Origin: an uncultured Candidatus Saccharibacteria bacterium
GTDB lineage: Bacteria > Patescibacteriota > Minisyncoccia > Phycocordibacterales > UBA9973
NCBI GenBank assembly: GCA_964404925.1
Contig: CAYOLW010000003.1
Coordinates: 575 to 64,574 of the forward strand
Length of the DNA stretch: 64,000 bases
Reading direction: 5' to 3'
The notes below the pieces were generated by a model, which saw only the letters and a program-made list of their open reading frames with translations, was not told the DNA's origin and searched no databases. Positions 9,641 to 50,891 of the stretch are shown here, in pieces (the stretch's first letter is position 1; the number at the start of each line of letters is the position of its first letter). Made by a program: the position numbers and the translations under genes.

Positions 9641-10186
9641 CTATTTTAAGTTTTCAAGAATCTTTTTAATTAGTTCGTGTTGTGGAGTAAGTTCTATTTT
9701 GACAACATTAAGGCTAATGGCATTCCATTTTTCTTCAACTTTAAAGTTCAACATTTTAACCAAGTCTACAAAATCCATCTCCCTGGTATACCTAACAGCA
9801 TTCATAAAACCCTGAACTGAAGTAAATCGATAGCAGTCAGCGTTACAACAAACCTCAGATTCAATTGAATAAAAATTATTTGAACCATGGTGTTCTAAAA
9901 TACAGTGTCTAATATTTTCTTTATCTTCTTTCTGTAAAGGAAATTTTTCCATTAGCTCATTAGCCTTTTCTAGTCCCATTTGCACATGTTCAGGCAATCT
10001 ATTCTCGGCAATAGCTTGTGTTATTGCACAGTCCATCAGCAATGTACCCGCTTCAACAATGTCTATGTTAGCACCTATTTCTAAGGCTAGTTTTTTACCT
10101 TTTTCTGTAGCTAAATCTATCTGCGCCTTTGGCGGCACACTTTGGCTATATGCCAATTCCCTTGCTGCAATTAAAAATTCTTTCAT
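9641..10186 (-). CDS. HD-domain protein (putative phosphohydrolase)
   Basis: ILEHHGSNNFYS-type His/Asp cluster; weak but consistent with HD superfamily. Confidence 0.45.
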   Translation of the reverse strand: MKEFLIAARELAYSQSVPPKAQIDLATEKGKKLALEIGANIDIVEAGTLLMDCAITQAIAENRLPEHVQMGLEKANELMEKFPLQKEDKENIRHCILEHHGSNNFYSIESEVCCNADCYRFTSVQGFMNAVRYTREMDFVDLVKMLNFKVEEKWNAISLNVVKIELTPQHELIKKILENLK

Positions 10187-10195
10187 TCCCTTATT

Positions 10196-10822
10196 TTAAC
10201 ACAAGATTTTTTCTATTGTTGGCACGAGTTCACGAGGATCTTCTATAATAACAGCAGGGTTACCTGACTGTAAAAGTTCACGATTGTGTAGTCCCCAGGT
10301 TTCAGCAATAACAGGCACACCACAAGAGTTACCTTCCTCTATGTCACCTAATGTATCAGTCACAAACACCGCCTCAGTGGGTAGTAAGTTGTATTTCTCA
10401 AACAGAGATTTAATCCTTACTACTTTGCTTTTGTGGAATTCATAGCCCAGAATTTCTGAGAAGCAACCTCCAAGATTTTCTTTGTTTATGAAATTTGTCA
10501 CGACTGGCCCACTGCTTGAAGTTACTATTACTAGTATATATTTATCAGATAAATGTAAAACGGCATCATGCAGTATGTCATGTATTGTATAGCGGAAAAT
10601 ACCCTCTTCGTATTGTTTAAAGAATTCTTCATGCCCTGTTTCTACTAGATTATGTTTCACTTTTGCTTCTTGCCATTTTTCATGGAAATTACCATTTGAT
10701 ATTTCACTATATTGCTCAAACGTGAAATGCGGATTAACCCTCTGGTGTATCTCAAAAGACAAATCAGCTGTATTGATAAATACCCCATCGAAATCAAAGA
10801 TTACTAATTTTTTCTTATCCAT
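10196..10822 (-). CDS. HAD-superfamily hydrolase
   Basis: N-terminal motif I VIFDFDGVFINT (DxDG), later VTSSS (motif II-like) and an acidic motif IV. Confidence 0.75.
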   Translation of the reverse strand: MDKKKLVIFDFDGVFINTADLSFEIHQRVNPHFTFEQYSEISNGNFHEKWQEAKVKHNLVETGHEEFFKQYEEGIFRYTIHDILHDAVLHLSDKYILVIVTSSSGPVVTNFINKENLGGCFSEILGYEFHKSKVVRIKSLFEKYNLLPTEAVFVTDTLGDIEEGNSCGVPVIAETWGLHNRELLQSGNPAVIIEDPRELVPTIEKILC

Positions 10823-10825
10823 AAT

Positions 10826-11470
10826 TTATATTTCAAAATTTTTAAGTTCCTCTATATACGGTGCGGCAGTAGCATCATTTATGTCTTCTGGTTTAATGTT
10901 ACATTTAGCAAATATTTGGTTTTCTATTTCTTTACCACAATCTACCAAATGCTGACGCTCCAAGTTGTCAAAGCCGCTTCTGCCAGCATACCGCCTGCGG
11001 GCTTCTTCCATACGTTCTTCATACGAAACAATTCCAAAAGGGTTCACTCGCATATCAGCATGATGCATTATTTTTAGCAGCACATCATCGGATGCTGCGT
11101 GTTCACATAAAAGAGTGAAATGATTCTGATCAGCTAATGCCCCAATTTCTTCTGCTAATCCTAACTCCCGGATTATTTGTATGGTTGCATTATGTTCATT
11201 TTCACCATATTTTTCTCTATATTCACCCTGTACAGCTTGCCAATACTCCACCCCTTCTGGTTCAAACATATCTGGAAAAACATCAAACTTGAATTTGAGT
11301 ATATTACCCATATCATGCAGTAGGCATACGGTGACTATTTTATTTTTATCAATCGTATCTCCCTGCCAATTATCACAAATCATCGCTGCTACTGCTGCAA
11401 CCCGCAGCATGTGCATTTGCAGTGTAGGTGGGATTTTATAATTTTTATATATTTCAGAAATCGTCCGCAT
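10826..11470 (-). CDS. HD-domain phosphohydrolase
   Basis: HMLRVAA...LLHDMGN (H...HD motif) and a later H..D pair. 214 aa. Confidence 0.6.
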   Translation of the reverse strand: MRTISEIYKNYKIPPTLQMHMLRVAAVAAMICDNWQGDTIDKNKIVTVCLLHDMGNILKFKFDVFPDMFEPEGVEYWQAVQGEYREKYGENEHNATIQIIRELGLAEEIGALADQNHFTLLCEHAASDDVLLKIMHHADMRVNPFGIVSYEERMEEARRRYAGRSGFDNLERQHLVDCGKEIENQIFAKCNIKPEDINDATAAPYIEELKNFEI

Positions 11471-14400
11471 TATTTTTCAATCTTAATTTTAAATACTAGA
11501 TTTTCTACTTTAATCTCAACACCATCATTAGGGACGAAGGACAGGTCTTTGGCACCAACTGTCTTTACAAAATCATCTTTGAATTTTTCTACTAATTCCT
11601 TTCCGGTGTTATCTGTTTCAATCAACAGACTAACCATATCACTTGGTAATAGATTCATTTGTTTACGGATGTCTTGCACAGCGCGAACCAATTCTCGATA
11701 GTCCCCTTCTTGTTTTAATTCAGGAGTTATTTCTGTATCTATTTTAATTTCTCCAGCCTTCACTTCTTTTACATTCAATTCATCTTTTATAATTTCTATA
11801 TATGAAGCAGCTGGTAACTCAGGCATAAAGAAAGCGGCCAGAGGTTGCCTAACTGGCAAGTTATTTACTTGTCTTTCTTTCATTCCAAGCGAAATGAACT
11901 CTCGAACTTTCTGCATTTCCGCTGTGTCAAAGGCACCCTTTGGTATTTGTGGCCAATTAGACAAATGCACACTCTCTGCGTCACCATCTACTTTCAACTT
12001 CTGCCACACATCTTCGGCGGCAAATGGTGCAAATGGTGCAAGTAGTTTTGCAATATTCTTTAGTACGAAATACAACGTTGCTTTAGCATTAACATCACCT
12101 TCCTTTATTCGATCTCGTGAACGACGCAGATACCAAGTAGACAAATCGCCCATGAATTCGCGCATGGCACGGACTGGCTCAAGCACCTTGTACTCATCCA
12201 TGTTCTTAGTGGTAAGTTCTGTTAGTTCAGCAAGTTTTGCCAATATCCACTGATCAAGCACATTCGCTTCCCCGAGATTGGACCTCAAAGACCCCAGAGG
12301 TCCAACCTCTGCATCCTTTTCTAAATTTTTATCTCTGTACAATTCATAGAAGGCCAGCACATTATAGTAGAGTCCAAAAACTTGGCGATTTAAATCAAGT
12401 ACAGTCTTCTCATCAAAATTCTTAGACTCACCTGGTTGATTAACTGAATACATCCACAGACGCAGAGTATCAACTCCGTATTTTTCAATCATACTCCATG
12501 GGTCAACGATGTTACCTAATGATTTAGACATTTTCTTACCCTTGGCATCGAGCAAGTGACCAAGGCAGATAACATTGCGGTATGCTTTTCCGCGACCCAT
12601 TAGTACACCCACAGCATGTAGCGTGTAGAACCACCCTCGGGTCTGATCGATAGCTTCAGAAATGTAATCAGCTGGGTAGCCAGGACCATCGACGAAATCC
12701 TTGTTTTCAAATGGATAATGATCCTGAGCAAAAGGCATCGCACCCGAGTCGAACCACACATCCATCACTTCTTTAGTGCGATGAAATTCTTCTCCATCTT
12801 TTTCCAAAACAACCTCATCGATATATGGTCGATGGAAATCAAGTTCATAATCTTCATTATGTGGTATTGGTGCAAAATCAAGATCTCGGCATTCTGCATT
12901 TTTAAATCTTTCAAAACCTTTGATAAACACACCCCTGTCTTGATCGGGTACATAGTCATGGCTATTCGGCGTATGTATACCAGAGGCAACAAAGAAAAGC
13001 CAAGCTGTGCCACCATGGGTCACAAATAATATATTTTTATTTTTATATTTTTCTTCTATTTCATACAGTGCTGCGCCTACTCGCTTTAACACATCAGCGA
13101 ATGATTCCCCGCCTGGTATTTTATGTGTAAACCAGTTCGCACCAACGCTCGAAACATAATCATGATAATCACGCCAACTTTTACCATCAAGTTCCCCTGG
13201 GTTAATCTCACCCAAACGCGGGTCTTCTACGACTTGGTCTTGAGACAATCCTAATCTATCACGTAATATTTCGGTTGTTTCTAAGGTGCGAGTAAATGGT
13301 GAAGTTATAATAAGGTCTATTTTTTTATCAGCTAGACTCTCCGCTGTCTTGGCTACATCTGCGCGTCCTGTTTCGGTGAGGTTGTCTTCTGCTTGTTTAC
13401 TGTAGCTCACGAGTCCGCTTTGATTACCCTCGGTGCCGCCGTGGCGCATGACGAAATATTTGTTTCCAGATTTCTTGGTATATTTTTTTAGAGTGTCGAG
13501 TGAATCAACCACAATCTTTTTACCATCACTGGCAAGCCACACCGGCAGGGGTGTTCCCCAATACCTTTCACGTGATATAGCCCAGTCCTTCACTCCATCA
13601 ATCCATTCACCAAATCTTCCCTCGCGAATATGAGACGGCTCCCAGTTAATGGTTTTATTTTCTTCGATAAGTTTCTTTTTTATTTCTGGATCGGTCATAC
13701 GCACATACCAAGAATCGCGTGCGTAGTATATAAGCGCAGTCTTGCAACGCCAACAGTGCGGATATGAGTGCTCATATAGTTCTTTATTGAAATACAGATT
13801 ATTCTCCTGCAAATATTTTATGATATCTACATCAAGAGTTGGTTTACCTTCTTCATTTTTTTCTTTTACAAATCTGCCTTCGAGGAATCCAGTACCCGGG
13901 ATAAATTTACCTTCAAGGTTCACAAGGTGGTGTTTAGGTAGTCCAACCTCGGTGCCGAGAACAAAGTCATCCTGACCGTACATCACCGCCGTATGCACTA
14001 TACCAGTACCATCTTCGGTGGTAACAAAATCAGCTGCATATACTTTGTACGCCCTGCTTTCTAACTTTTCTTTTTCAGTATCTGAAATAGTATCCGCCAT
14101 GTATGGAAAAAGTGGTTCGTATTCAAGACCAACAAGGTCTGAGCCTTTAAATTCAGATAATATTTCATAACCATCCCCTAATATAGACAGCCGAGCTTTT
14201 GCTAAAATTAAACTCTCCGGCTCTTTGAGGTCGGACCTCAAAGATTCCCCGAGGTCCGACCTCTGCCCGCCGGCAATCCTAACTTTTACATAATCAATAT
14301 CCTTTCCCAATGCTAATGCCACGTTGCCAGGCAATGTCCACGGAGTAGTAGTCCAGGCAAGAATATAAGTATTTTCTTGTCCTTTAACTTTAAACTTCAC

Positions 14401-15021
14401 ATACAAAGACAAATCTTTTACATCTTCATACCCTTGAGCAAGCTCGTGTGAAGAAAGCGCAGTCCCGCAGCGAGGACACCAGGGTACAACCTTATAATCC
14501 TTATACAGCAAATTCTGATCGTCTATTCTTTTAACCACACTCCAGAGTGATTCAATATAGCTATTATGATATGTCACATATGGATGCTTCTGGTCTACCC
14601 AGTATCCAATGCGTTCGGTAAATTTGTTCCACTGGTCGAGATACATCCATACGTTTTCTTTACACTCTTTGTTGAATTGAGCTACTCCGTACTCCTCGAT
14701 CATTTTCTTGGAGTTTAATCCGAGCTTTTTCTCTACTTGCAATTCCACCGGTAATCCGTGTGTATCCCATCCGCCTTTACGACGAACATGGAATCCCTGC
14801 ATAGTTTTGTAGCGAGGAATGACGTCTTTGAATGCACGCGCTTCGAGGTGGTGAATGCCAGGGTTACCGTTAGCTGTTGGTGGACCTTCATAAAAGACAA
14901 ACTCTTTACCAGAATTTGCTCGCTCGTCCATCGACTTTTGGAAAATATTATTTTCTTTCCAAAATTCTAATACCATCTCCTCGTTTTGTGCATATGCACT
15001 TTTTTTTATTTCCTCGCTCAT
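11470..15021 (-). CDS. ileS: isoleucyl-tRNA synthetase (type-2/eukaryote-like) carrying an internal histidine-phosphatase-like insertion
   Basis: PPTANGNPGIHH (HIGH), WTTTPWTLPGN (CP1 editing), WGTPLPVW, DVWFDSG, KMSKSLGN (KMSKS). 1183 aa. The insertion is described in the findings. Confidence 0.95.
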   Translation of the reverse strand: MSEEIKKSAYAQNEEMVLEFWKENNIFQKSMDERANSGKEFVFYEGPPTANGNPGIHHLEARAFKDVIPRYKTMQGFHVRRKGGWDTHGLPVELQVEKKLGLNSKKMIEEYGVAQFNKECKENVWMYLDQWNKFTERIGYWVDQKHPYVTYHNSYIESLWSVVKRIDDQNLLYKDYKVVPWCPRCGTALSSHELAQGYEDVKDLSLYVKFKVKGQENTYILAWTTTPWTLPGNVALALGKDIDYVKVRIAGGQRSDLGESLRSDLKEPESLILAKARLSILGDGYEILSEFKGSDLVGLEYEPLFPYMADTISDTEKEKLESRAYKVYAADFVTTEDGTGIVHTAVMYGQDDFVLGTEVGLPKHHLVNLEGKFIPGTGFLEGRFVKEKNEEGKPTLDVDIIKYLQENNLYFNKELYEHSYPHCWRCKTALIYYARDSWYVRMTDPEIKKKLIEENKTINWEPSHIREGRFGEWIDGVKDWAISRERYWGTPLPVWLASDGKKIVVDSLDTLKKYTKKSGNKYFVMRHGGTEGNQSGLVSYSKQAEDNLTETGRADVAKTAESLADKKIDLIITSPFTRTLETTEILRDRLGLSQDQVVEDPRLGEINPGELDGKSWRDYHDYVSSVGANWFTHKIPGGESFADVLKRVGAALYEIEEKYKNKNILFVTHGGTAWLFFVASGIHTPNSHDYVPDQDRGVFIKGFERFKNAECRDLDFAPIPHNEDYELDFHRPYIDEVVLEKDGEEFHRTKEVMDVWFDSGAMPFAQDHYPFENKDFVDGPGYPADYISEAIDQTRGWFYTLHAVGVLMGRGKAYRNVICLGHLLDAKGKKMSKSLGNIVDPWSMIEKYGVDTLRLWMYSVNQPGESKNFDEKTVLDLNRQVFGLYYNVLAFYELYRDKNLEKDAEVGPLGSLRSNLGEANVLDQWILAKLAELTELTTKNMDEYKVLEPVRAMREFMGDLSTWYLRRSRDRIKEGDVNAKATLYFVLKNIAKLLAPFAPFAAEDVWQKLKVDGDAESVHLSNWPQIPKGAFDTAEMQKVREFISLGMKERQVNNLPVRQPLAAFFMPELPAASYIEIIKDELNVKEVKAGEIKIDTEITPELKQEGDYRELVRAVQDIRKQMNLLPSDMVSLLIETDNTGKELVEKFKDDFVKTVGAKDLSFVPNDGVEIKVENLVFKIKIEK
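12273..12308. repeat. in-frame palindromic mini-element inside ileS (gagattggacctc-aaagacccca-gaggtccaacctc)
   Basis: 13-nt arms that are reverse complements with one mismatch around a 10-nt spacer. Reads through in-frame as ...GSLRSNLGEA.... Confidence 0.6.
14225..14261. repeat. in-frame palindromic mini-element inside ileS (gaggtcggacctc-aaagattcccc-gaggtccgacctc)
   Basis: Perfect 13-nt inverted repeat around an 11-nt spacer. Shares the ggacctcaaaga core with the 12273 copy. Encodes ...SDLGESLRSDLKEP.... Confidence 0.65.
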
Positions 15022-15252: not shown

Positions 15253-16935
15253 CTACATTTTCTCTGGAGTTTCAATGCCGAGTAGATATAGGCCGTTTTT
15301 GAGCGTGGTATTAAACGCTTTTACAATAGCGAGGTTGTACTGCATTTCTGGGTTAGCTTCATCTATCACTCGCACCCGTCCATACCAAGAATTAAAGGCC
15401 TGAGAAAGCTCGAGTAGATATGCTACCAAATGGTGTGGTTCCCAAAGCGAAATACATTTCTCGACAACCTCCGGGAAACGAACCAAATGCTTTTCTATAT
15501 CGGTAATATTTTCTTTTGGCCCAAATTCAAAAGAAGCATTTGGAACTTTTTCCAAAACAGAATTAGACCGCACAGCGCTATACTGCAAGTACGGACCAGA
15601 GTCTCCCTCAAAAGAAAGTGAAGTCTCAGGATCAAAGTTTATATTTTTACCAGCCATACTTTTCAATATGGCAAATTTCAAAGCAGCCACAGATATCATT
15701 TCTTTAGTCTGCTCTGATAGATCTTTAGCTTTTTCTGTTACTTCTTCTGTTACTGCATCAAGCAAAGTGCTGGCAATCGGTACGCCACCTAAACGAGAAG
15801 ACATTTTCTGCCCCTTGAAGCTCATGCGCCCATGGGTACGATGCACTGTCTTGTCCTGCCAAGTTTTGTTTATTTTACCGGCTGCGTGCACTACAACTTT
15901 AAAATATTCAGACTGTTCGTGGTCAGTGATGAAAATAGATATATCTGGGTTGTATCTTGAGAACTTTAGGAACATTAAACCCACATCTTTCGCCTCATAA
16001 GTCGGATAGCCCTCCTTGTTTATAAACACGCGTGTATGTAGTCCGTCCTGTTCACCTTTGTAAATAGTAGCCCCATCAGACTCTTCAAAAACCTTCCCAA
16101 CGTTTTCGACAACCAACCTCTTGCCTTCTTTGCCGGCTTCACTTTCAAAAATATAAGCGTCAAATTTAGAACCAAGTTTGTCAGACATTGTTTTGAAATA
16201 CGACAAATTTATTTCTTTACCTATTTCATAAGCATCAAGTTCAGGACCTTGGATATGGTCGTAAATCATTTTTGTTATTTCACGTATGCGTGGCTCAATA
16301 CTTGAGTCTTCTTCCATCGCTCGAGTACCCCGTGCGTAACACTCACCAATATAAGTCAGCTTCTCACCCAAGGTATCCAGTGAATTGAGTTTATCCATAC
16401 CATCGAGAAGCATAATATAAATAGCCTTTCCGATACCGAGCGAGACATCTGAGGGGTACGAAATAGCGGTAACCTCTGCACCAGAAAACCGTGCAAAGCG
16501 TGTTATGGATTCTCCTATTGCATTGTTCATCAAGTGACCAATGTGAAAAGGTTTGAATAGGTTGATACTTGTGTGTTCGGTCAAAATTTCCTTACCTTTG
16601 TGTGTGTCTACCCTACCCCAATTTTCGCCCTGGGATAAAATGTTTTTTAGTTCATTAAAAAAATATTCGGATGATAAATAAAAATTAATAAACCCAGGAC
16701 CAGCAACTTCCACTTTGTCTATTTCTGTAATTTTATTTTTATTTAATTCTGCAACAATCTTTTCTGACAACTCTTTTGGGTTCTGTCCAAGTTTCTTTGC
16801 TAAAACCATTGATACATTGCACGAATAATCGCCCATCTTTAAATCAGACGGGTGCTCTAAGGTAATATTATCTACTTCGATATTCAACACTTGAAGTGCA
16901 GAAATTATTATGCTTTTTATTTTATCTTGTATCAT
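15253..16935 (-). CDS. argS: arginyl-tRNA synthetase
   Basis: N-terminal Arg_tRNA_synt_N pattern, HIGH-region PFHIGHLMNNAIG, KMSSRLGG (KMSK-like), C-terminal anticodon-binding domain ending in M. 560 aa. Confidence 0.9.
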   Translation of the reverse strand: MIQDKIKSIIISALQVLNIEVDNITLEHPSDLKMGDYSCNVSMVLAKKLGQNPKELSEKIVAELNKNKITEIDKVEVAGPGFINFYLSSEYFFNELKNILSQGENWGRVDTHKGKEILTEHTSINLFKPFHIGHLMNNAIGESITRFARFSGAEVTAISYPSDVSLGIGKAIYIMLLDGMDKLNSLDTLGEKLTYIGECYARGTRAMEEDSSIEPRIREITKMIYDHIQGPELDAYEIGKEINLSYFKTMSDKLGSKFDAYIFESEAGKEGKRLVVENVGKVFEESDGATIYKGEQDGLHTRVFINKEGYPTYEAKDVGLMFLKFSRYNPDISIFITDHEQSEYFKVVVHAAGKINKTWQDKTVHRTHGRMSFKGQKMSSRLGGVPIASTLLDAVTEEVTEKAKDLSEQTKEMISVAALKFAILKSMAGKNINFDPETSLSFEGDSGPYLQYSAVRSNSVLEKVPNASFEFGPKENITDIEKHLVRFPEVVEKCISLWEPHHLVAYLLELSQAFNSWYGRVRVIDEANPEMQYNLAIVKAFNTTLKNGLYLLGIETPEKM

Positions 16936-23193: not shown

Positions 23194-25458
23194 TTACTTT
23201 ACGTTGAGAGCAGAACCGGCACGTAGCCATTCAATTTGGCTTGCGTTATAGGTGTTTACTAATTTAATTATCTCGTACATACCATCTGCATGATCAAGGC
23301 GCAGATAAATCGGTATGTCTGGCATTAAAGTTTCAAAACCTATCAAACTCACTTTGTCATCCTGTCTAATTTCGTCATAGTCGCTAGGATCATCGAAAGT
23401 GAAAGCAAAAATACCTTGCTTCTTCAGGTTGGTCAGGTGTATGCGAGCAAATGATTTCGCAACTACCACCTTCACTCCCATATAGCGCGGCTCCATAGCA
23501 GCATGTTCACGACTACTTCCCTCACCCAGGTTTTCTTCGGCAAAAACAATTGTGCCGATACTATTATCTTGGTAAATTGAAGCACTTTCGTGAACTGTCC
23601 TATAATCCCCAGTGACAGCATTCCATACATTATTCTTTTCACCGTTGAAAAAGTTTTCCGCTCCCATATACAAGTTGCGGGAAATATTTGCAAGGTGTCC
23701 CCGGTATTTTAACCATGGACCGGCCATAGAAATGTGGTCTGTGGTGCATTTACCTTTGGCTTTAATCAATACATGCATGTCTGTGAGATCAGCAGCCGTA
23801 ATAGGCTTGAACGGTTCAAGTAACTGCAATCTTTCTGAAGCCAAATCAACAAACACATCAACCTTTGAACCATCTTTTGCAGGTGCAATGTAACCACGTT
23901 CACCCACATCAAATCCATCATCAGGTAATTCAATTCCTTCTGGTGCACTAAAGCAACGCCAATTGCCATCAATGAAAAATTCAAGAGTTCCCTGCTGGTG
24001 ATCATACTTGAATTTAGACAAATCACCCGCTAAAGCAAAGGCTGTCACTATTTCAGGGCTGGCTACAAATGCATGTGTCTTTGGATTACCATCATTACGC
24101 GAAGTAAAGTTTCGATTGAAACTTGTCATTATTGAATTTGGACGTTCTTTATCATCAATATGCCGCGACCATTGTCCAATACACGGGCCGCAAGCATTGG
24201 ACAGCACTACGCCGCCAATTTTTTCAAAATCACGCAATATGCCATCTCGTTCGGCCGTATACCGAATCTGTTCAGAACCCGGGGTAACAGTGAACTCAGA
24301 GATAAAACTCAATCCTTTTTCATGCGCCTGCCAGACTACATCTACCGCTCGGGTCAAATCTTCGTATGAAGAGTTGGTGCATGATCCGATAAGCCCCACT
24401 TCCAATTTTACTGGCCAGTTATTTTCTTCAACTGCAGCGGCAAATTTCGAAAGTGGCCAAGCCAAATCTGGTGTGAACGGACCATTAATGTGAGGCTCAA
24501 GTTCAGAAAGATTTATTTCAATTACCTGATCAAAGTATTGTTCTGGGTTTGCATAACATTCGGAATCTCCATTTAGGTACGGAACTAAACCTTTGCATAT
24601 ATTGGCAACTTTCTCACGACCAGTGGCTCGCAGATAACGGTCCATACTTTTGTCATACCCAAAGGTAGATGTTGTGGCACCAATCTCTGCACCCATATTG
24701 CATATTGTGGCTTTACCAGTTGCACTGATATTGTGTACGCCAGATCCGAAATATTCCACAATACAATCCGTGCCACCTTTGACGGTCAGAATGCCTGCCA
24801 AATGCAAAATTACATCTTTCGGCGAAGTCCAACCATGAAGTTTACCGGTAAGTTTTACCCCAATCAATTTAGGCATTTGTAATTCCCATGGCATTGCAGT
24901 CATGACATCCACCGCGTCAGCACCACCAACACCAATAGCAATCATGCCAAGGCCGCCAGCGTTAACTGTGTGCGAGTCTGTTCCGATCATCATACCACCA
25001 GGGAAGGCGTAATTTTCTAATACAATCTGGTGAATAATACCAGATCCAGGTTTCCAGAATCCGATGCCATATTTTTGTGATACAGATTGCAAGAAATCAA
25101 ATACTTCCTTGTTTTTGTTCAAAGCATTTGGTAAATCTTCAGTGGCTCCTTTTTCTGCCTGAATCAGGTGATCGCAGTGAACCGTGCTGGGCACAGCCAC
25201 CTTTTTACGGCCGCAGGTCATGAATTGCAATAGCGCCATTTGCGCTGTTGCATCTTGCATGGCCACACGGTCAGGTGAAAAAAACACGTAATCCCTTCCA
25301 CGCTGGTAATCAGTGACCGAGTTATCGGGATGCAAATGGGCGTAGAGGATTTTTTCAGTAAGGGTCAGAGGTCGCTTGAGTTGTTTTTTTGCGGCATCTA
25401 CACGAGTCTGAAAAGTCGAATAGAATCCTTTGATCATTTTAATGTCGAACATAATCAA
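23194..25458 (-). CDS. acn: aconitate hydratase, mitochondrial-type (Aco2/AcnA-like monomeric)
   Basis: [14 protein letters not shown]...[18 protein letters not shown]...[13 protein letters not shown], Fe-S ligating Cys regions ([22 protein letters not shown]), C-terminal swivel domain. 754 aa matches the mitochondrial-type size. Confidence 0.85.
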
Positions 25459-28550: not shown

Positions 28551-30224
28551 TTATACTATATCAACAATTCTAAGACGTAACTCTTCTCTACCTCGGAAAC
28601 GAGACAAATCAAAAGTCGCGTATAAATCCACATGCGCACCTTGAGAAATATCTGCTTTAAATGATTCAGGATTAGAGAAAAATGATATTGCTTCGACTTC
28701 TTTGCCTTGTTCATTAACCACAGTAATAGATAAATGTTCCCCGCTGTTATTTTTCCCGAACTGTCGAGCTTTTGTTATTTTTACCTTTTCAAATAAAAAA
28801 ACAGGCTTTGGATTACCCAGACCAAACGGTGCCATTTTACCTATTTCTTTCCAATTCTTCATTGTTACCATGTTTAAATCAAGTTTCAAATCAAAATTTA
28901 TTTCACTTCCTTCAGATGGCTTTTTGACTTTATGAAAGCTTTCGTTTAATGATTCTTCCAGAAAATGAATCTTGTTTGTATGCACACTAAATCCACCTGC
29001 CAGTTCATGCCCACCATAATTAATAAAATATTCAGTACTCTGAGACATCAACTCGACTACAGACACAGACCCAGGAGAACGGCATGAACCCTTAATGACA
29101 TCATTTTCATCTTTGGCCCAAACAAAGACTGGCTTATCGTATTCATCCATAACCTTCCCTGCCACAAGCCCAAGCACCCCCACCTTCCACTTGGGATTAC
29201 CTATTACCACCACATCACCCAACTCACGCTTCTCAAAGCTGTGTTTAACTTCTTTCATGATTGAAAGTACAGTATGCTTACGCTCGTCATTAATTTTTGT
29301 CAGGTGCTCTGCCAAACCTACCGCCTTTTTGTCATCCTTTGATGCCAGTAATTCATACGCCCGCATCGGGTCGTCCATGCGTGAAGCTGCATTGATTCGT
29401 GGAGTCAGCATAAATCCAACATCATCTTCGTTCAAATATTTCTGATCTATCTTCATAATACTCAGCAGTTTTTGCAATCCTGGACGGGGAGATTTACGCA
29501 GAACCATCAATCCAAAATATGCTATAGCCCGATTTTCACCAGTGAGCGGAACCATATCAGAAAGAGTTGCAAGTCCAGCCATATCAAGCAACCACTTTTC
29601 CCAACCTTCTGGAGTTCCCGGACGTTGGACGTCGAGACTCCCAGACGTCCAACGTCCGGGAACCAACCCTTGTACAAGTTTAAACACTACCCCTGCACCA
29701 CACAGCATGGACTCAGGATATTCATCTGTTTTTGGATTTAAAATAGCGAAAGCTTTCGGCAATTTTTCGTGAGGTAAATGGTGATCGGTTACGATGACAT
29801 CTATGCCATACGAATTAGCCAAATCAATTTCTTCTATGGCAGTGGTGCCTAGGTCGATGGTGATTATTAAATTTACATCTTTATCTTTGAACTCCTCTAT
29901 GGCCTCTATGTTTAACCCGTAGCCTTCAGCGTTGCGGCTCGGTATATATATTTCAAAGTTTTTAAAACCAATTTTTTCAAAAAAATCATGTATAATTACC
30001 GCCCCTGGTATACCGTCCGCATCATAATCGGCGTACACCACCACTTTTTCATTAGCATTTATGGCGTGCATTATTCGGGTACAAGCTTTTTCCATATCAC
30101 GCATTAAAAAAGGATCGTGCATATCGCGTTCATAATCTGGGTTTAAAAAAATATCTGCTTCCGCTTCAGTCTTTATCCCTCTCTTTATCAAAAGTTCCCG
30201 TAGTAGTTCATGAAATTTACCCAT
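28551..30224 (-). CDS. recJ: single-stranded-DNA-specific exonuclease RecJ
   Basis: DHH motifs: VVYADYDADGIPG, DVIVTDHH, DHH-associated DHHA1 C-terminal region (GGHELAGGFS). 557 aa. Confidence 0.85.
   Translation of the reverse strand: MGKFHELLRELLIKRGIKTEAEADIFLNPDYERDMHDPFLMRDMEKACTRIMHAINANEKVVVYADYDADGIPGAVIIHDFFEKIGFKNFEIYIPSRNAEGYGLNIEAIEEFKDKDVNLIITIDLGTTAIEEIDLANSYGIDVIVTDHHLPHEKLPKAFAILNPKTDEYPESMLCGAGVVFKLVQGLVPGRWTSGSLDVQRPGTPEGWEKWLLDMAGLATLSDMVPLTGENRAIAYFGLMVLRKSPRPGLQKLLSIMKIDQKYLNEDDVGFMLTPRINAASRMDDPMRAYELLASKDDKKAVGLAEHLTKINDERKHTVLSIMKEVKHSFEKRELGDVVVIGNPKWKVGVLGLVAGKVMDEYDKPVFVWAKDENDVIKGSCRSPGSVSVVELMSQSTEYFINYGGHELAGGFSVHTNKIHFLEESLNESFHKVKKPSEGSEINFDLKLDLNMVTMKNWKEIGKMAPFGLGNPKPVFLFEKVKITKARQFGKNNSGEHLSITVVNEQGKEVEAISFFSNPESFKADISQGAHVDLYATFDLSRFRGREELRLRIVDIV
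29615..29662. repeat. in-frame palindromic mini-element inside recJ (ttcccggacgttggacgtc-gagactccca-gacgtccaacgtccgggaa)
   Basis: Perfect 19-nt inverted repeat around a 10-nt spacer. Translated in-frame as ...PGRWTSGSLDVQRPGTPEG.... Same arm-spacer-arm architecture as the two ileS elements. Confidence 0.65.
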
Positions 30225-40118: not shown

Positions 40119-41867
40119 TTATTCTGAAACAACTCTGAATACTTCCTCTATAGTAGTATTACCTAAAACACATTGAAATATACCATCCTCAATCATAGTC
40201 ATCATTCCTTCTTTTTTAGCTTGCACTTCTATATCATCCTGAGAAGCACCTTTACTGATAAGTTCACGAATAGTCGTGCTGACTTTTAACACTTCATGAA
40301 TACCAACACGACTATGATAACCATCTTCTGATTCATCATTCTTTACTGCTTTAAAGAAAGGAACTTTTTCCCAAGTAGTTTTTTCATCAATAAGTTTTTC
40401 TTTTTTCAAAAAAGACATCATACGGTCTAAATCTACTAGTTTGCTCAGATTTTTTATCTCAGCTGGAGATAAAAAATACTGTTCTTTAATTTTTGTTAAT
40501 CGACGAACCAATCGCTGCGCAATAATCGTCTTTACAGTCGAAACAATCAAAAAAGGTAGTACACCCATATCTATCATTCTAGGTATTGCGCCTGCAGCAG
40601 AATTAGTGTGGATAGTGGACAAAACTAAGTGTCCAGTCAAAGATGCATTCACTGCTAAACTAGCCGTCTCTGTGTCTCGTATTTCACCAACCATGATTAT
40701 GTCGGGATCTTGACGTAGTAGACTACGCAGACCATTAGCAAAAGTTAATCCAATTTCAGGCTTTACTTGAGTTTGATTGACGCGTGGCATTTGATATTCA
40801 ACAGGGTCTTCAACTGTTGAAATATTTACGTCTGGTTTATTAAGGATCTCAAGCATAGTATATAAAGTCGTAGTTTTACCACTACCAGTAGGTCCAGTTG
40901 CCAAAATCATTCCTGTTTTTTGTCGCATGGATTCATATATCCTTTCTAGACCTTCACCATGAAAACCAAGCCCTTCAAGTGAAAAACCTCCCCCTCCCTC
41001 ATGCAAAATACGCATTACGGTCTTCTCTCCAAAAAAGGTTGGCAACGTTGAAACACGGAATGAAACCTTATCACCGTTTTGATCAATTTTGAAACGACCA
41101 TCTTGTGGTAAACGCTTCTCATCAAGTTTAAGGTTAGAAAGTACTTTAATACGGGCAGTAATACCTGAGGAAGCAGATTTATCTAGTATCATTGCTTCAT
41201 GTAACAAACCATCAATACGGTATCTAACAATTAGATCATGTTCTCCCGGTTCAATGTGAATGTCAGAAGCATTTTGCAAAATTGCGTGAAAAATAAGAGA
41301 ATCAACTATTTTGACCACCGGCAAATCTTCAGCCATTTTTTTTAACTCTTCTTCAGATTTTTCTCCCACATCCTCTTTTGAGATAGATAGCGATGCAACT
41401 TCTTTTTGTATTAAATTATCGAATTCTGCCTGTAGGCTACGCTTGTATTGCAAAAGGGAAGATTTTATTGAAGCAACATCAGTTAACCTTGGTAATATCC
41501 TAAGCTCAGATTTCTTTTTCACGAAATCTATAACAGACAAATTATCAACGTCGAGCATTGCAACTTCTAGTCCTTTGTCACTTTTTTTATAAGCAATAAT
41601 ATTGTATTTACGAGCTAATGGTTCCGGAATTAGAGACAGTATATTGAAATCAATTTTTTCGTTTACTAAGCTAACATATGGAATACCCAACACAAAAGCC
41701 TCCATTCTTTTTAAATCGTTTTCAGAAATTTTACCTTCAGACAAAAGAAGGTCAGTGAACTTTTCTTTTTTCTCGGCAGCTTTTTTACCAAGCTGGTCTA
41801 AAACATCACCATTTACCAAACCAGCATCGAGTATATATTTTTTTAGTTGTTCTTCGTTAACTTGCAC
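40119..41867 (-). CDS. pilB: type IV pilus assembly ATPase PilB (GspE family)
   Basis: N-terminal GSPII_E_N-like domain, Walker A GPTGSGKTTTLY, Asp box, Walker B/His box (VGEIRD...), no tetracysteine at the end. 582 aa. Confidence 0.9.
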   Translation of the reverse strand: MQVNEEQLKKYILDAGLVNGDVLDQLGKKAAEKKEKFTDLLLSEGKISENDLKRMEAFVLGIPYVSLVNEKIDFNILSLIPEPLARKYNIIAYKKSDKGLEVAMLDVDNLSVIDFVKKKSELRILPRLTDVASIKSSLLQYKRSLQAEFDNLIQKEVASLSISKEDVGEKSEEELKKMAEDLPVVKIVDSLIFHAILQNASDIHIEPGEHDLIVRYRIDGLLHEAMILDKSASSGITARIKVLSNLKLDEKRLPQDGRFKIDQNGDKVSFRVSTLPTFFGEKTVMRILHEGGGGFSLEGLGFHGEGLERIYESMRQKTGMILATGPTGSGKTTTLYTMLEILNKPDVNISTVEDPVEYQMPRVNQTQVKPEIGLTFANGLRSLLRQDPDIIMVGEIRDTETASLAVNASLTGHLVLSTIHTNSAAGAIPRMIDMGVLPFLIVSTVKTIIAQRLVRRLTKIKEQYFLSPAEIKNLSKLVDLDRMMSFLKKEKLIDEKTTWEKVPFFKAVKNDESEDGYHSRVGIHEVLKVSTTIRELISKGASQDDIEVQAKKEGMMTMIEDGIFQCVLGNTTIEEVFRVVSE

Positions 41868-41951: not shown

Positions 41952-44399
41952 TTATTGCCACTGACCTGTTAAGTCTGCATGCACTGATGGATTGGCTGCA
42001 TCAACAACTGTAGTTCCAGTAGGAAGTGGTAAATTAAACTTAAATGCACCTGGGTCAGCGGATAAGTTACCAAAAACATAGAATATGTCAGTTCCGGTAT
42101 AAGGCGTACTTTCATTACTGTAACCAGTAGCACCAGTAGATACAATCTTGAATACAGGAAGAACGTTTTGAGGGCTTTGAATTGTTATCGGTTTACTGAA
42201 GTTCACAGTGACTATCATTGATTTAGGGAAATTACCACTATCCCAAACCTTAGTAATTGATAAAACCTTTGGTGCATCAGCATTTTGCACAGTTACAAAA
42301 ACACTGTTTAATGTAAATTGCCCAACCGTGTTAGTGCAACTTAGTTGAAAAATTGTATCCTGTGTTAAGTTATTTATAACAATAGAACCACTTGCAACCT
42401 TCTGCCCCGTCCAAGTAGAAACAGGTGAGCTAGTAGCAGTACAAGGGTTTGAGCCGTTCATATTAGTAGTACTCCAAGTTAATGTAGTGCTACCATTCGT
42501 AACCGGATTAGGGTCTGCAGATAGTGTAATTACTGGATCTGGACCTTGTTGGACTGTTACAATTACAGATTCTGAGATTGAACCTCCTGGACCACTGCAA
42601 TCTATGCTAAATGTTGTATCTGAAGTTAGTGCAGCTTGCGTGTCCCAATTACCACTTGCTGGTCTAGAATAACCTGTAGTTGCCCATCCAGATGAACCAC
42701 CGGTAGATTTACAAGCAGTTACATTTGTAGTTATCCACGTTATTTTTGTTGTACCGTTTGCGTTAGTACTTGAAGTAAGCGACAATGTTGGTTTTATACT
42801 TACAACCACAGAATCAGAAACCATAATACCGTTTGCATTTGTACAATTAATAGTGAAGGTTGTTTGAACATTTAAACCATTAATTGTAGCTGAACCAGCG
42901 GCAACTTCGTGTGCAGTATTCCAAGAAGCTTTGTTTGGCGAACTAGTTCCGAAGCAAGTACTAACATTATTGTTAGTCCAGTACAAACTAAAACTTTCTC
43001 CAGCATCTATAGATAGAGTGTCCACACCCTCTGCTTTTAAATCAACCTCTGACATAATATTTGGAATTGCTACTCCACCATTCTGAAGTGTGTAAATAGC
43101 AATTTTTTTTAGCCCAGGTTCTACTGCTTTTATCCATGCAGCTTCATCAAAACTATGATCATTTTCATCTTCTATAAATACTCCCCATGGATCTGTACCG
43201 TAAAATCCAATGACCTCTGTAGGCCTAAACGTTCCAGTATTTATTTCATTAGAAATTTGTGTAGTAGAAAAATCCTTCGTATTTGGTGTAATGGTAGAAT
43301 TGCTTACCACATAACGCCAAGCGTAATCTTGAGAATAATATTTATTACCTATAATTTCAATTGTACCAATCCAGGCACCTGCCGTTACACCATTATCCCC
43401 TACAGCCAGGGCTAAATTATAATCTTGCGGCAAAGTAAACTTAGTACATTTTTTGTAGTTTTTCCAAGTTGGAATACCATATATTGCTACATTCATGTTT
43501 TTGCAGATAGGTTGTAAATCTGCCACCTTACCATTAGCACCAATTTTATAAGAATATAAAGTAAATACAGCATCAGCAGAAATTTTAAACTCAAAAGGAT
43601 ATCCTGAAAGTGGAATACTCGCATTTGGATTGTTGTAATTAGTCGTTATAGTATTTGACTGCCACCAAGGAGTTGTAGTTGTAGCTAAAATGTTATTGCC
43701 ATTAAGGTAGTAAACAGGCGAAGAAGTAGCAGCTCCAGTGTTAGTAAAATTTTGTGTAAGGTTCTGAGTAAGACCTGAGGTTAGTTGTGATGTGTTTTGT
43801 CCAAAGCTTAAATTCTGACTTTGTGTACTAATGTTTATAGATGAATTTGTGTTTATAGAATTATTAACCAACTGACTGGCGCCTGTTGAATTAACATCGA
43901 TACCAGTATTAGTACTCTGAGTTTGGTTAGTGCTAGACAAAGCTAGTATTGTTGGTTTACTTGCTACGGTCAAAACACTATTTAAGACTTGTTGAGCTGT
44001 TGGATTTAAAGAAGCCTTCCTTAAATTCTGATTTTGGGTTTGATATAAGGAACGCAAATAGGTAAGCGTTTTATTATTTGCAGTACTCAACTTAATACCT
44101 GGATAAATGTTCATGAATTTGAACGTATGTGGTCCAGCAGAACCATCGGGGACCAAACCAGCAAGTTTCTGATAAGCAATAACTGCAGATTTAGTTCCAG
44201 GTCCAAATTTACCATCAACTTTTTTATTATAAAGACCTTGGTTTACTAGATAAGCTTGAAGTGCAGATACTGCTGGACCAAAACTACCAACCTTTAAAAA
44301 CTTTACCCCGGAGTCATTATTCAAAAAAGATGAATCTGTAGCTGCACTGGCAGATATTGAGAGCAAAGAAATAATTAAAATAAAAAGATATTTTTTCAT
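41952..44399 (-). CDS. secreted protein: signal peptide + peptidoglycan-binding domain (PG_binding_1-like) + S/T/N/Q-rich linker + three tandem ~70-aa Cys-pair Ig-like repeats
   Basis: MKKYLFILIISLLSISASA. PGBD: LKVGSFGPAVSALQAYLVNQGLY..DGKFGPGTKSAVIAYQKLAGLVPDG. Ig-like repeats LYWTNNN..C...INCTN, KITWITTNVTAC...IDCSG, TLTWSTTN..C...LSCTN. Confidence 0.6.
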   Translation of the reverse strand: MKKYLFILIISLLSISASAATDSSFLNNDSGVKFLKVGSFGPAVSALQAYLVNQGLYNKKVDGKFGPGTKSAVIAYQKLAGLVPDGSAGPHTFKFMNIYPGIKLSTANNKTLTYLRSLYQTQNQNLRKASLNPTAQQVLNSVLTVASKPTILALSSTNQTQSTNTGIDVNSTGASQLVNNSINTNSSINISTQSQNLSFGQNTSQLTSGLTQNLTQNFTNTGAATSSPVYYLNGNNILATTTTPWWQSNTITTNYNNPNASIPLSGYPFEFKISADAVFTLYSYKIGANGKVADLQPICKNMNVAIYGIPTWKNYKKCTKFTLPQDYNLALAVGDNGVTAGAWIGTIEIIGNKYYSQDYAWRYVVSNSTITPNTKDFSTTQISNEINTGTFRPTEVIGFYGTDPWGVFIEDENDHSFDEAAWIKAVEPGLKKIAIYTLQNGGVAIPNIMSEVDLKAEGVDTLSIDAGESFSLYWTNNNVSTCFGTSSPNKASWNTAHEVAAGSATINGLNVQTTFTINCTNANGIMVSDSVVVSIKPTLSLTSSTNANGTTKITWITTNVTACKSTGGSSGWATTGYSRPASGNWDTQAALTSDTTFSIDCSGPGGSISESVIVTVQQGPDPVITLSADPNPVTNGSTTLTWSTTNMNGSNPCTATSSPVSTWTGQKVASGSIVINNLTQDTIFQLSCTNTVGQFTLNSVFVTVQNADAPKVLSITKVWDSGNFPKSMIVTVNFSKPITIQSPQNVLPVFKIVSTGATGYSNESTPYTGTDIFYVFGNLSADPGAFKFNLPLPTGTTVVDAANPSVHADLTGQWQ

Positions 44400-44426
44400 T
44401 GTCTAATGATTAATGCTAATAATAAA

Positions 44427-47438: not shown

Positions 47439-47505
47439 TACCCAAAGAAAAACACCCTGAGGAGAGTCCAGAGTGTTTCCTTGTGTGTCCTTATATATTT
47501 ATATT

Positions 47506-50337: not shown

Positions 50338-50386
50338 TAATAATTAATACTAATATATCAAATTCACCCACAATAAAAATCTACCT

Positions 50387-50860
50387 TCATTTTCTTGACA
50401 GAATTACATAATCATTTGGAGAAAAAGTCGCTTTATCAGGATATGAGTAAAGTTTCCAAGCATTGTCTTTCAAAACACACCTAAACAATGAGTTAATTTC
50501 TGTGCCAGAATTAATAGGAGTAGTTATAACTACAAAACTTTTTACAGGTTCTTTTGGTGGTTTTCTTTTAATTTGAAGAAAAAGTGCTGGGCCGACTTGA
50601 TGAGGACAAGGAACGTATCCTTTATCTTTAGCCAAATTAATAATTTTTTCTAAATTCATGTCTTCTTTTAAGCCTAATTCACTACAAGTGAGTAAGATTA
50701 CTCTATCTTCAAAAGATCTTTTTTCTTTAACCATATTCTGTAGCATTGAATAAGCTGCTTCAGAACAAAAAGGTTTTATCTCTTCTTCTACTTGAGTATT
50801 AGATATATTAGGATCAACCTTGAATTCAGGTTGATGAATGTTGTTTTTAAGTTTTTCCAT
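50387..50860 (-). CDS. hypothetical small cytoplasmic protein embedded in the secreted-protein array
   Basis: 157 aa, no signal peptide or TM segment. Conserved Cys pairs (FCSEAA..., YVPCPH). No recognised motif. Confidence 0.4.
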   Translation of the reverse strand: MEKLKNNIHQPEFKVDPNISNTQVEEEIKPFCSEAAYSMLQNMVKEKRSFEDRVILLTCSELGLKEDMNLEKIINLAKDKGYVPCPHQVGPALFLQIKRKPPKEPVKSFVVITTPINSGTEINSLFRCVLKDNAWKLYSYPDKATFSPNDYVILSRK

Positions 50861-50891
50861 TACTACCTACAACTCTCTAAGAGTTTTTAAA

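Follow-up and report, generated by a model that had tools for sequence, protein, structure and literature searches.

What is a complete phosphatase doing in the middle of an isoleucyl-tRNA synthetase (IleRS), and how did it get there? This question is raised by the ileS gene in the window, i.e., the 64,000-nucleotide stretch of DNA analysed here. Bacterial aminoacyl-tRNA synthetases (aaRSs) are usually regarded as fixed in architecture, and for class Ia synthetases the CP1 editing domain is, to our knowledge, the only nested hydrolytic domain on record. The window protein points to a second, unrelated hydrolase, catalytically intact by its sequence, which resides inside IleRS in a large part of the Paceibacteria. 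Since a complete phosphomonoesterase domain (~205 aa) is nested in the synthetase, we read the protein as a probable bifunctional IleRS-phosphatase, with a PhoE/PspA/CobC-like domain placed at the tip of a zinc knuckle and captured from an operon partner.

The host gene looks like an intact type-2 IleRS, as judged from its profile score, signature motifs, editing motifs and C-terminus.

11470..15021, minus strand: ileS, type-2 isoleucyl-tRNA synthetase of 1183 aa with nested phosphatase (single continuous ORF)
14848..14859, minus strand: class I signature in the non-canonical G-X-H-H form (GIHH, aa 55-58; sequence reading)
12520..12534, minus strand: KMSKS motif (aa 830-834), intact (sequence reading)

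The curated ileS equivalog model TIGR00392 matches the window protein with 845.1 bits (cut-off 621.4 bits), in two stretches parted by the insert, and the Pfam families tRNA-synt_1, Anticodon_1 (PF08264) and DUF5915 (PF19302) are present. The best PDB matches are the IleRS2 structures 8c8w (P. megaterium, E=2e-222) and 8c8u; 8c8w and T. thermophilus 1ile rank above the IleRS1 structure 1ffy. Also the C-terminus is of type 2, composed of Anticodon_1 and DUF5915/ARD2-3 without a C-terminal zinc-binding domain, and the CP1 editing domain is recognizable by its TTTPWTLP and GTGIVHTA motifs. The GIHH form of the signature is shared by 105 of 120 homologues; G/AXHH is the form of mupirocin hyper-resistance and has been described only in IleRS2 (PMC10485003). 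Among the homologues, the type of signature (HXGH vs GXHH) shows no correlation with the presence of the insert. No second IleRS was found within the 64-kb window, and the gene probably encodes the housekeeping type-2 IleRS in a bacterium of the Paceibacteria (Patescibacteria/CPR). NCBI names proteins of this kind only 'class I tRNA ligase family protein'.

The insert interrupts this synthetase between two conserved elements that flank a hairpin.

13537..13560, minus strand: WGTPLPVW (aa 488-495), conserved strand preceding the hairpin (sequence reading)
13483..13536, minus strand: N-terminal half of the former zinc-knuckle hairpin (aa 496-513, LASDGKKIVVDSLDTLKK; alignment to 8c8w and relatives)
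12862..13482, minus strand: inserted segment, aa 514-720 (207 aa; 8c8w alignment break at aa 513/721)
12763..12861, minus strand: C-terminal hairpin half (aa 721-753, ...LDFHRPYIDEVVLEKDGEEFHRTKEVM; alignment from 8c8w residue 480 onward)
12742..12762, minus strand: DVWFDSG (aa 754-760), restart of the catalytic core (sequence, 8c8w alignment and core definition of PMC10485003)

WGTPLPVW and DVWFDSG are separated by 258 aa, the spacing that the earlier note had estimated, compared with 50-89 aa in related IleRS without the insert. The in-frame interval runs from 12763 to 13536; the end at 13537 given before lies one base too far, and the accompanying motif coordinates were a few bases off. In the alignment with P. 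megaterium IleRS2 (8c8w) the break falls at query aa 513/721, equivalent to chain residues 476/480, so that the true extra segment comprises ~207 aa and not all 258. It consists of a conserved linker, (T)KKSGNKY, the histidine-phosphatase domain and the C-terminal strands of that domain. The N-terminal half of the hairpin aligns with the CxxC knuckle half of 8c8w and of relatives with or without insert, and has lost its cysteines in the window IleRS; in the C-terminal half, EKDGEE stands in place of the CxC cysteines, where relatives keep a CxC/CxxC motif. On this alignment, the insertion site is the tip of a peripheral CxxC...CxC zinc-knuckle hairpin, which leads from the connective-peptide region into the second half of the Rossmann (HUP) core. 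In P. megaterium IleRS2, residues 40-168 and 513-632 make up the HUP catalytic core (PMC10485003). Because the insert sits between residues 476 and 480, outside of this core, it belongs to the connective-peptide region and not to the catalytic core or 'synthetic site', to which it had initially been assigned. The junctions read ...LKK|YTKKSGN and ...APIP|HNEDY, the GC content of the insert (0.37-0.48) is the same as that of the flanks, and no repeats or mobile-element traces were found flanking it. An intein was rejected, as it had been before: no Hint, splicing or homing-endonuclease family was matched in Pfam at E<=0.01, and the junction residues are not intein-like.

The inserted domain itself is a histidine phosphatase of branch 1, nested in frame in a continuous ORF as first proposed. 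It matches Pfam PF00300 with E=3.4e-34 and 118.6 bits (gathering cut-off 21.7 bits) over profile positions 2-154 of 194, and all four motifs quoted at the outset, FVMRHGGTEGNQSG, LTETGR..., DLIITSPFTRTLETTEIL and ILFVTHGGTAW, are present.

12994..13455, minus strand: Pfam His_Phos_1 (PF00300) envelope, aa 523-676 (profile match)
13438..13446, minus strand: RHG motif (R526, nucleophile H527, G528; aligns to PhoE RHG)
13423..13425, minus strand: N533, phosphate-pocket Asn (119/120 close homologues; 75/90 diverse embedded domains)
13288..13290, minus strand: R578, second phosphate-binding Arg (120/120 close homologues; 88/90 diverse embedded domains)
13207..13209, minus strand: E605, general acid/base Glu (120/120 close homologues; 87 E and 3 D among 90 diverse embedded domains)
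13015..13017, minus strand: H669, second catalytic His in VTHGG (120/120 close homologues; 89/90 diverse embedded domains)

R526, H527, N533, R578, E605 and H669 align with the catalytic residues of PhoE. The RHG motif is kept in 120/120 close homologues, with R in 89/90 and H in 90/90 of the diverse embedded domains; across the six residues, conservation amounts to 119-120/120 in the close homologues and to ~83-100% in the 90 divergent domains. Mean pairwise identity is 48% for the phosphatase domain vs 78-80% for the Rossmann core. Near-invariance of the catalytic residues, while the rest of the domain (~30-48% identical) drifts faster, argues for selection on catalysis, and the embedded domain is apparently a complete and catalytically active phosphatase. 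It has the PGAM-type alpha/beta fold, and the insert was modelled with a pLDDT of 87-96 in the full-length protein and of 88 as domain only; the full-length AF2 model has a pTM of 0.55 and a pLDDT of <50 in parts of the Rossmann core.

The domain has a signature of its own, SGNKY-F-x-MRHG and EEKYKNKNIL-x-V-[TS]-HG. Every NCBIfam equivalog cut-off is missed by the window phosphatase domain, and identity as dPGM (TIGR01258, 24.2 vs cut-off 81.7; NF038349, 58.7 vs 225) as well as orthology to CobC or PspA (TIGR03162, 94.6 vs 162.9; NF045917, 53.8 vs 350) were rejected. The PhoE/PspA/CobC small-molecule group provides the closest structures only. Substrates of the nearest characterised relatives are phosphoserine, glucosyl-3-phosphoglycerate, a riboflavin precursor and alpha-ribazole-5'-phosphate, none of which is RNA. 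An extended RNA-binding surface is disfavoured because the domain is not consistently basic (insert pI 5.7; homologues mean 6.8, range 5.2-9.5).

This architecture is widespread among relatives. PF00300 occurs in all of the best 120 homologues (90%-identity clusters), the best 80 GTDB species-representative genomes all encode the domain within an ORF that is 700 aa or longer, and 84 of the best 150 50%-identity representatives have it at the site seen in the window protein, down to 36% overall identity. The carriers are uncultured lineages such as Paceibacteria, Nomurabacteria and similar, and the insert junctions are the same in more than 200 independent homologues from metagenomes. The window protein is present in identical form in two sources, NCBI and Logan. 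The earlier note had raised the possibility of a chimeric assembly, a worry that is settled by the conservation in the best 120 homologues and 80 species genomes rather than by reads. Three close relatives, P0123, P0129 and P0263, have neither the insert nor a phosphatase gene adjoining ileS, so the phosphatase module would be dispensable for aminoacylation; P0123, which is 60% identical to the window protein, looks like a clean secondary deletion in the alignment, with a KNKSGEPD linker in place of aa 514-720. Insert-bearing and insert-less IleRS cores interleave in a crude neighbour-joining tree. One candidate for a free-standing phosphatase, P0343, proved to be a piece of a frameshifted ileS.

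Histidine-phosphatase domains were also found in two further loops of IleRS.

12676..12711, minus strand: site B loop, aa 771-782 (BLAST mapping and Pfam; the window protein has no insert here)
12259..12336, minus strand: site C loop, aa 896-921 (mapping in P0153 and P0211)

Site B is occupied in P0239 and P0251, which are Peregrinibacteria-type IleRS, and site C in P0153 and P0211. The domain is present at two sites of one protein in P0211 and in tandem in P0249. In a single sequence, P0256, which also has a His_Phos insert, site B holds a P-loop kinase-like domain with generic P-loop kinase matches only (E ~0.0004-0.05). In loop C, the window protein instead has a palindromic mini-insertion of 13 codons (nt 12271-12309). 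When 90 embedded domains were joined with PhoE and 9mmh in a neighbour-joining tree, the result was star-like, with 26-40% identity in all directions, a topology that does not separate independent capture from a within-gene move for the domains at sites B and C.

The origin of the insert is suggested by the gene order around ileS.

15253..16935, minus strand: argS (ArgRS, 560 aa), conserved upstream neighbour of ileS (Pfam)

Synteny of argS and ileS is seen in 63/80 loci, and in three relatives (L081, L086 and L104) a free-standing phosphatase gene lies between the two. A search of a large protein database with the 207-aa insert as query recovered P0346, a free-standing phosphatase of 194 aa with 41% identity to the insert; the insert HMM gives it 174 bits, vs 78 for PhoE. 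Its gene lies 2 bp after argS, and another 4 bp separate it from an ileS that lacks the insert and has its zinc knuckle intact. Conversely, the free-standing protein used as a metagenome query retrieved mainly IleRS-embedded domains. Such P0346-type genes between argS and ileS provide a link of the phosphatase to IleRS of the Rosetta-stone kind. Two other free-standing proteins, P0347 and P0348, were set aside as uninformative; they adjoin a gene for a P-loop kinase-like protein, with no IleRS in the surroundings. Clustering of neighbouring genes in the 80 loci revealed general Paceibacteria synteny only (argS, dUTPase, Tmk, RecO, GlyS).

Capture from an operon partner is the most likely route, because a few relatives still have the separate gene there. 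A separate phosphatase gene in argS-hp-ileS order would represent the ancestral state, from which the gene was taken into ileS, followed by loss, duplication and placement at other IleRS loops in different lineages. The domain is predicted to hydrolyse a phosphomonoester via a phospho-H527 intermediate, and its activity may be functionally tied to IleRS beyond mere co-expression.

A possible, if clearly less probable, alternative is that the domain is a metabolic phosphatase, acting for example on phosphoserine, a sugar phosphate, phosphoglycerate or a cofactor precursor, which recombined from the adjoining gene into permissive loops of IleRS and has been carried along since. For a minimal genome the fusion would bring co-expression and one gene start fewer, and the phosphatase would not be coupled mechanistically to aminoacylation. 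This fits with the closest structures, all of which are metabolite phosphatases, and with an ancestral-looking state in which the phosphatase is a neighbouring gene. Such a neighbour offers the opportunity for recombination into ileS, and adjacency alone could explain why this happened repeatedly. The insert was also lost without adjacent replacement in P0123, P0129 and P0263. Furthermore, the insertion points are variable loops, of which loop C in the window protein accepted its unrelated palindromic mini-insert as well, and aaRSs are known as preferred hosts of domain insertion (PMC13114784). However, accidental fusion of neighbours is expected end to end, whereas the phosphatase is internal in 87/87 domain-bearing representatives, in three distinct loops and sometimes doubled, and is N- or C-terminal in none. 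It also speaks against this alternative that genomes as different as 27-31% and 51% GC have the argS-hp-ileS order in common, and that the architecture persists to ~36% IleRS identity.

If a bifunctional IleRS-phosphatase is assumed, its substrate could be nucleotide-like or the phosphorylated 3' end of a tRNA, with a blocked or spent phospho-compound being cleared beside the aminoacylation site, which we regard as unlikely. More specifically, and with even greater reservation, the domain might remove phosphate or pyrophosphate from the 2'/3' end of tRNA(Ile), or act on a phosphorylated nucleotide at the synthetic site. End blocks of this kind would, for example, be left by nucleases or added by tRNA-end-modifying toxins. 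Healing of the tRNA, a second and so far undescribed activity of a class I synthetase, would then be combined with charging in IleRS, and recurrence in three loops would be explained by selection that keeps the domain near the route taken by the tRNA 3' end.

HipA-type kinases phosphorylate aaRSs, and the domain might instead be a protein phosphatase that protects IleRS, by stripping an inhibitory phosphate set by a toxin kinase off IleRS or a partner, or that serves as a phospho-dependent switch. This is very doubtful, as its best matches are to the small-molecule group of PhoE, PspA and CobC and not to SixA or PGAM5, no conserved kinase or toxin gene was found among the neighbours across 80 loci, and the kinase-like insert occurs in one sequence only. 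It is highly improbable that the PGAM fold persists as a non-catalytic pseudo-enzyme with a structural, tRNA-binding or interaction role. The domain does evolve faster than the IleRS core, and the catalytic set is altered in a few distant representatives (e.g., P0204, LHHKE-; P0202, R578W), but all 90 embedded domains have the nucleophile His as well as Glu or Asp at the acid/base position, the two Arg are each kept in 88-89 of them, and the second His in 89. An artefact or mobile element, be it misassembly into a chimera, a separate gene with a frameshift, an intein or a mobile insertion of recent date, has practically no standing, given that a broken ileS in four ORFs at another locus (L082) is all that was found in its favour, against the continuous ORF, the identical protein in two sources, the shared junctions of the homologues and the absence of intein-related Pfam matches, flanking repeats or a composition break.

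The reading as a bifunctional IleRS-phosphatase has partial parallels among known proteins. The CP1 editing domain of IleRS, ValRS and LeuRS is likewise a hydrolytic domain nested in the connective-peptide region, where large insertions are tolerated. In contrast to CP1, which is universal, has another fold and hydrolyses aminoacyl esters or adenylates, the window insert is a lineage-specific and dispensable phosphomonoesterase of PGAM fold, and it occupies a later zinc-knuckle hairpin (CP2 or CP3, depending on nomenclature). PhoE, PspA, CobC and Rv2419c belong to the same branch 1 of PF00300, but are independent proteins of ~200 aa with known metabolite substrates, whereas the window domain is embedded in IleRS. 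Joining of a branch-1 phosphatase to a nucleic-acid enzyme is also seen in the mycobacterial Rv2228c-type RNase HI/CobC-like acid phosphatase (NF005567, the second-best NCBIfam match of the insert with 83 bits vs cut-off 326), yet as an end-to-end fusion to a different partner. MutT1 (Nudix and histidine phosphatase; PDB 9cxx, 3fjy) similarly differs in its partner, its linear domain order and the absence of a tRNA synthetase. Other aaRSs carry an extra domain, such as IleRS with GNAT (NF040702 'ileS_w_GNAT', on which the window protein scores 322 bits vs cut-off 1999) and M. penetrans MetRS with an ancillary domain (PDB 9os7), but in neither is it a phosphatase. 6-phosphofructo-2-kinase/fructose-2,6-bisphosphatase combines a P-loop kinase and His_Phos_1 in one chain like P0256, with no sequence-specific relationship and a likeness that does not apply to the window protein. 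In line with the earlier note, which knew of no such synthetase, our literature search turned up no aaRS reported to contain a phosphatase.

A phosphatase that was placed, duplicated and deleted in different CPR lineages is of interest under either functional reading. If tRNA or IleRS-bound nucleotides are its substrates, charging would be coupled to a new kind of repair or quality control; a metabolic role would instead make it an unusual enzyme hidden inside an essential gene and missed by CPR pathway reconstructions. Natural pairs with and without insert, e.g., the window protein and P0123, lend themselves to experiments, and the free-standing operon form represents an evolutionary intermediate for studying insertion of one domain into another.

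A second hydrolase gene is attached to the other end of ileS.

10826..11470, minus strand: HD-domain hydrolase, 214 aa (Pfam HD, E=5e-8)

Its ATG overlaps the ileS stop (TAATG), and this arrangement indicates that the two genes are translationally coupled. The protein has a weak match to HDDC2/YfbR-like proteins, and its gene is followed by one for a HAD phosphatase in the window. Such further phosphohydrolases close to ileS are in favour of the bifunctional reading. The HD hydrolase is found downstream of ileS in 11/80 loci, and it is fused to the C-terminus of IleRS, at 50-55% identity over its full length, in four relatives (P0052, P0078, P0080 and P0100).

A histidine phosphatase domain is nested in the isoleucyl-tRNA synthetase (IleRS) encoded in the window, whose gene has the following features (aa numbers refer to the window protein).

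11470..15021, minus strand: ileS open reading frame, 1183 aa, one continuous frame
14848-14859, in ileS: class I signature GIHH, aa 55-58 (non-canonical G-X-H-H, not HXGH)
13537-13560, minus strand: WGTPLPVW motif of ileS, aa 488-495
12742-12762, minus strand: DVWFDSG motif of ileS, aa 754-760

The spacing between WGTPLPVW and DVWFDSG is 258 aa (nt 12763-13536). The earlier note, which had described a PGAM-like domain there, set the upper end of the interval one base too far and the motifs a few bases off; its remaining description (quoted motifs, continuous frame) is present in the window sequence. The protein scores 845 bits against the curated ileS model TIGR00392 (cut-off 621) and also contains Pfam domains tRNA-synt_1, Anticodon_1 and DUF5915, all of these matches being far above chance. 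The closest solved structures are type-2 IleRS, i.e., P. megaterium 8c8w (E=2e-222) and T. thermophilus 1ile. As GIHH, KMSKS, the CP1 editing motifs and the type-2 C-terminus are all retained, the synthetase part looks intact. A G-X-H-H swap in IleRS2 leads to mupirocin hyper-resistance (PMC10485003). GIHH is common to 105 of 120 close homologues, and the type of signature motif did not correlate with the phosphatase insert across 150 representatives.

The alignment with 8c8w breaks at aa 513 (chain residue 476) and restarts at aa 721 (chain residue 480), which delimits a truly extra segment of about 207 aa (aa 514-720). In 8c8w and insert-less relatives, the 50-89 residues between both motifs form a CxxC...CxC zinc knuckle. 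These cysteines were retained in all insert-less relatives inspected, and some insert-bearing homologues keep them on both flanks of the phosphatase. In the window IleRS all four are gone, with LASDGKK... and ...LEKDGEE in their place (nt 13483-13536 and 12763-12861). In P. megaterium IleRS2, residues 40-168 and 513-632 make up the HUP catalytic core (PMC10485003). This puts the point of insertion in the connective-peptide region, just ahead of the core's resumption and outside the synthetic site in which the domain had initially been placed.

The suspected histidine phosphatase was recovered by Pfam as His_Phos_1 (PF00300) at aa 523-676 (E=3.4e-34). The insert aligns with PhoE (1ebb/1h2e, E=2e-11), and R526, H527, N533, R578, E605 and H669 correspond to PhoE catalytic residues in this alignment. 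AlphaFold modeled the domain alone with confidence (pLDDT 88, pTM 0.87), and the top Foldseek ranks were PspA phosphoserine phosphatase, Rv2419c glucosyl-3-phosphoglycerate phosphatase, the riboflavin-pathway phosphatase 9mmh, PhoE and CobC. None of the NCBIfam equivalog cut-offs for dPGM, CobC, PspA and SixA was attained. Residue match, fold neighbours and unattained cut-offs together identify the insert, as judged from sequence and model, as a phosphatase-type superfamily member without assignable orthologue. Each of the six catalytic residues is conserved in 119-120 of 120 close homologues and in ~83-100% of 90 divergent embedded domains, whereas mean pairwise identity is 48% for the whole domain versus 78-80% for the Rossmann halves. 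Constancy of the catalytic residues in a drifting domain indicates that selection acts on catalysis.

The insert is real, not an artefact, and widespread. An identical protein was found in two sources. Among clusters built at 90% identity, the best 120 (61-71% identity, 1130-1348 aa) all combine PF00300 with PF00133, which answers the earlier question of spread; their named sources are Paceibacteria, Nomurabacteria, Minisyncoccia or Patescibacteria. Scanning GTDB species-representative genomes with a 349-aa junction query yielded 559 confirmed candidates, the best 80 of which matched the full query with the domain within a frame of at least 700 aa. The domain occupies the window's site in 84 of the best 150 50%-identity representatives, down to ~36% overall identity. 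Other arrangements were as follows, with site A at the tip of the zinc-knuckle hairpin, site B in the loop after DVWFDSG (aa 771-782) and site C in the loop at aa 896-921.

Site B: His_Phos in P0239 and in P0251, the Peregrinibacteria protein PCI25629.1
Site C, between catalytic and anticodon-binding domains: His_Phos in P0153 (268-kb NCBI contig)
Sites A and C both occupied by His_Phos: P0211
Tandem pair, His_Phos twice: P0249
Site A with His_Phos, site B with a P-loop kinase-like domain: P0256, 1395 aa (11.6-kb ENA contig; kinase-like domain at aa 737-880 of P0256 itself)

The kinase-like domain of P0256 matches AAA_18 and AAA_33, with weaker similarity to APS kinase, shikimate kinase and Pnkp1; this kinase and phosphatase pair within one IleRS is known from a single sequence. 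Insert-less and insert-bearing IleRS interleave in a crude core tree. One insert-less homologue, P0123 (60% identity; argS-ileS-recO), looks like a secondary deletion because a 'KNKSGE' linker remnant persists at the domain's expected place. No adjoining phosphatase gene was found at the loci of P0123, P0129 and P0263.

The insert-only query also retrieved a free-standing 194-aa phosphatase, P0346 (41% identical to the insert), whose gene is separated by 2 bp from the preceding argS and by 4 bp from the insert-less ileS that follows, with recO downstream (contigs of 356-580 kb). The adjacent ileS product has 954 aa, a canonical HYGH and an intact zinc knuckle; the synteny is that of the window, but with the phosphatase as its own gene. 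The divergent locus L086 (48% identical to P0346) has the order argS, phosphatase, ileS start, and in L104 (51% GC) a free-standing His_Phos is flanked by argS and ileS. An insert-built HMM scored 174 bits for P0346 and 156 bits for the L086 protein versus 78 for PhoE, and a metagenome scan with P0346 retrieved mostly IleRS-embedded domains; by these comparisons, embedded and free-standing phosphatases are one subfamily.

Downstream of ileS, the window encodes further putative hydrolases.

10826-11470, minus strand: HD-domain hydrolase, 214 aa, its ATG overlapping the ileS stop (TAATG)
9641-10186 and 10196-10822, minus strand: 181-aa protein and HAD-family phosphatase, downstream of the HD gene

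The HD protein weakly resembles HDDC2/YfbR-type proteins (E=0.012), the HAD protein is phosphoglycolate phosphatase/PpaX-like (under cut-offs), and the 181-aa protein faintly matches the RNase Y HD region and nothing else; three or four putative phosphohydrolases thus trail ileS on the same strand. HD and HAD genes each occur downstream of ileS in 11/80 loci. In four relatives (P0052, P0078, P0080, P0100; 1306-1348 aa) the HD hydrolase is joined to the IleRS C-terminus, creating a three-enzyme polypeptide (IleRS, His_Phos and HD). General synteny accounts for the remaining conserved neighbours, namely argS, dUTPase, Tmk, recO and glyS.

We propose that the insert is probably an active phosphomonoesterase that would operate through a phospho-H527 intermediate. 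A function tied to IleRS seems somewhat the better bet, given the conserved adjacency, the exclusively internal, repeated and multi-site insertion, and persistence over deep divergence. The main rival, a metabolic phosphatase that hitch-hikes in IleRS uncoupled from it, appears rather unlikely against these observations. Less likely again are a protein-phosphatase role, which we consider very improbable, and a pseudo-enzyme, still more so given the near-constant catalytic residues; an artefact has a negligible chance. For the active enzyme, structural relatives favour a small phospho-metabolite as candidate substrate. A nucleotide or tRNA 3'-end phosphate would be an improbable guess, for which the MutT1 precedent and the domain's association with both IleRS and the HD and HAD hydrolases leave room.

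The closest analogies, none of them the same thing, are the CP1 editing hydrolase nested in class Ia synthetases, Rv2228c (RNase H and CobC-like phosphatase), MutT1 (Nudix and histidine-phosphatase domain), a GNAT-bearing IleRS (NF040702) and M. penetrans MetRS with its ancillary domain. The earlier note knew of no comparable synthetase, and a full-text literature search likewise found no published phosphatase-bearing IleRS and no mention of one in a 2026 survey of ~96,000 IleRS sequences.

The window also carries a palindromic element with arms GAGGTCGGACCTC/GAGGTCCGACCTC, all three copies lying in frame within protein-coding genes.

14227-14263, inside ileS: copy 1, adds GGQRSDLGESLRSDLKEP, aa 251-268
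12274-12309, inside ileS: copy 2, adds 'GPLGSLRSNLG', ~aa 905-917
29614-29663, inside the RecJ ORF (28551..30224, minus strand): copy 3

Each of the two ileS segments is missing from at least 90% of close homologues (120-sequence alignment), and no copies were found in 106 loci. As RNA, copy 1 folds at -41.8 kcal/mol (z=-7.2); copy 2 lies exactly in loop C, where other lineages bear His_Phos; and the RecJ copy has mirrored G<->C swaps that preserve the stem. The element resembles the palindromic elements of Rickettsia, which likewise insert in frame.

No tRNA genes (ARAGORN) and no Rfam families at gathering score were detected in the whole 64 kb. A full-length aconitase (Aconitase and Aconitase_C, E=1e-145) is encoded at 23194-25458 (minus strand) in an otherwise reduced-looking Patescibacteria genome. 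Four successive large paralogous ORFs (815, 1003, 943 and 788 aa) occupy 41952-53258 (minus strand), a 157-aa ORF separating the third and fourth; an N-terminal PG_binding_1 (peptidoglycan-binding) is the sole recognisable domain of each, and the array adjoins a type IV pilus/T2SS ATPase gene (40119-41867).
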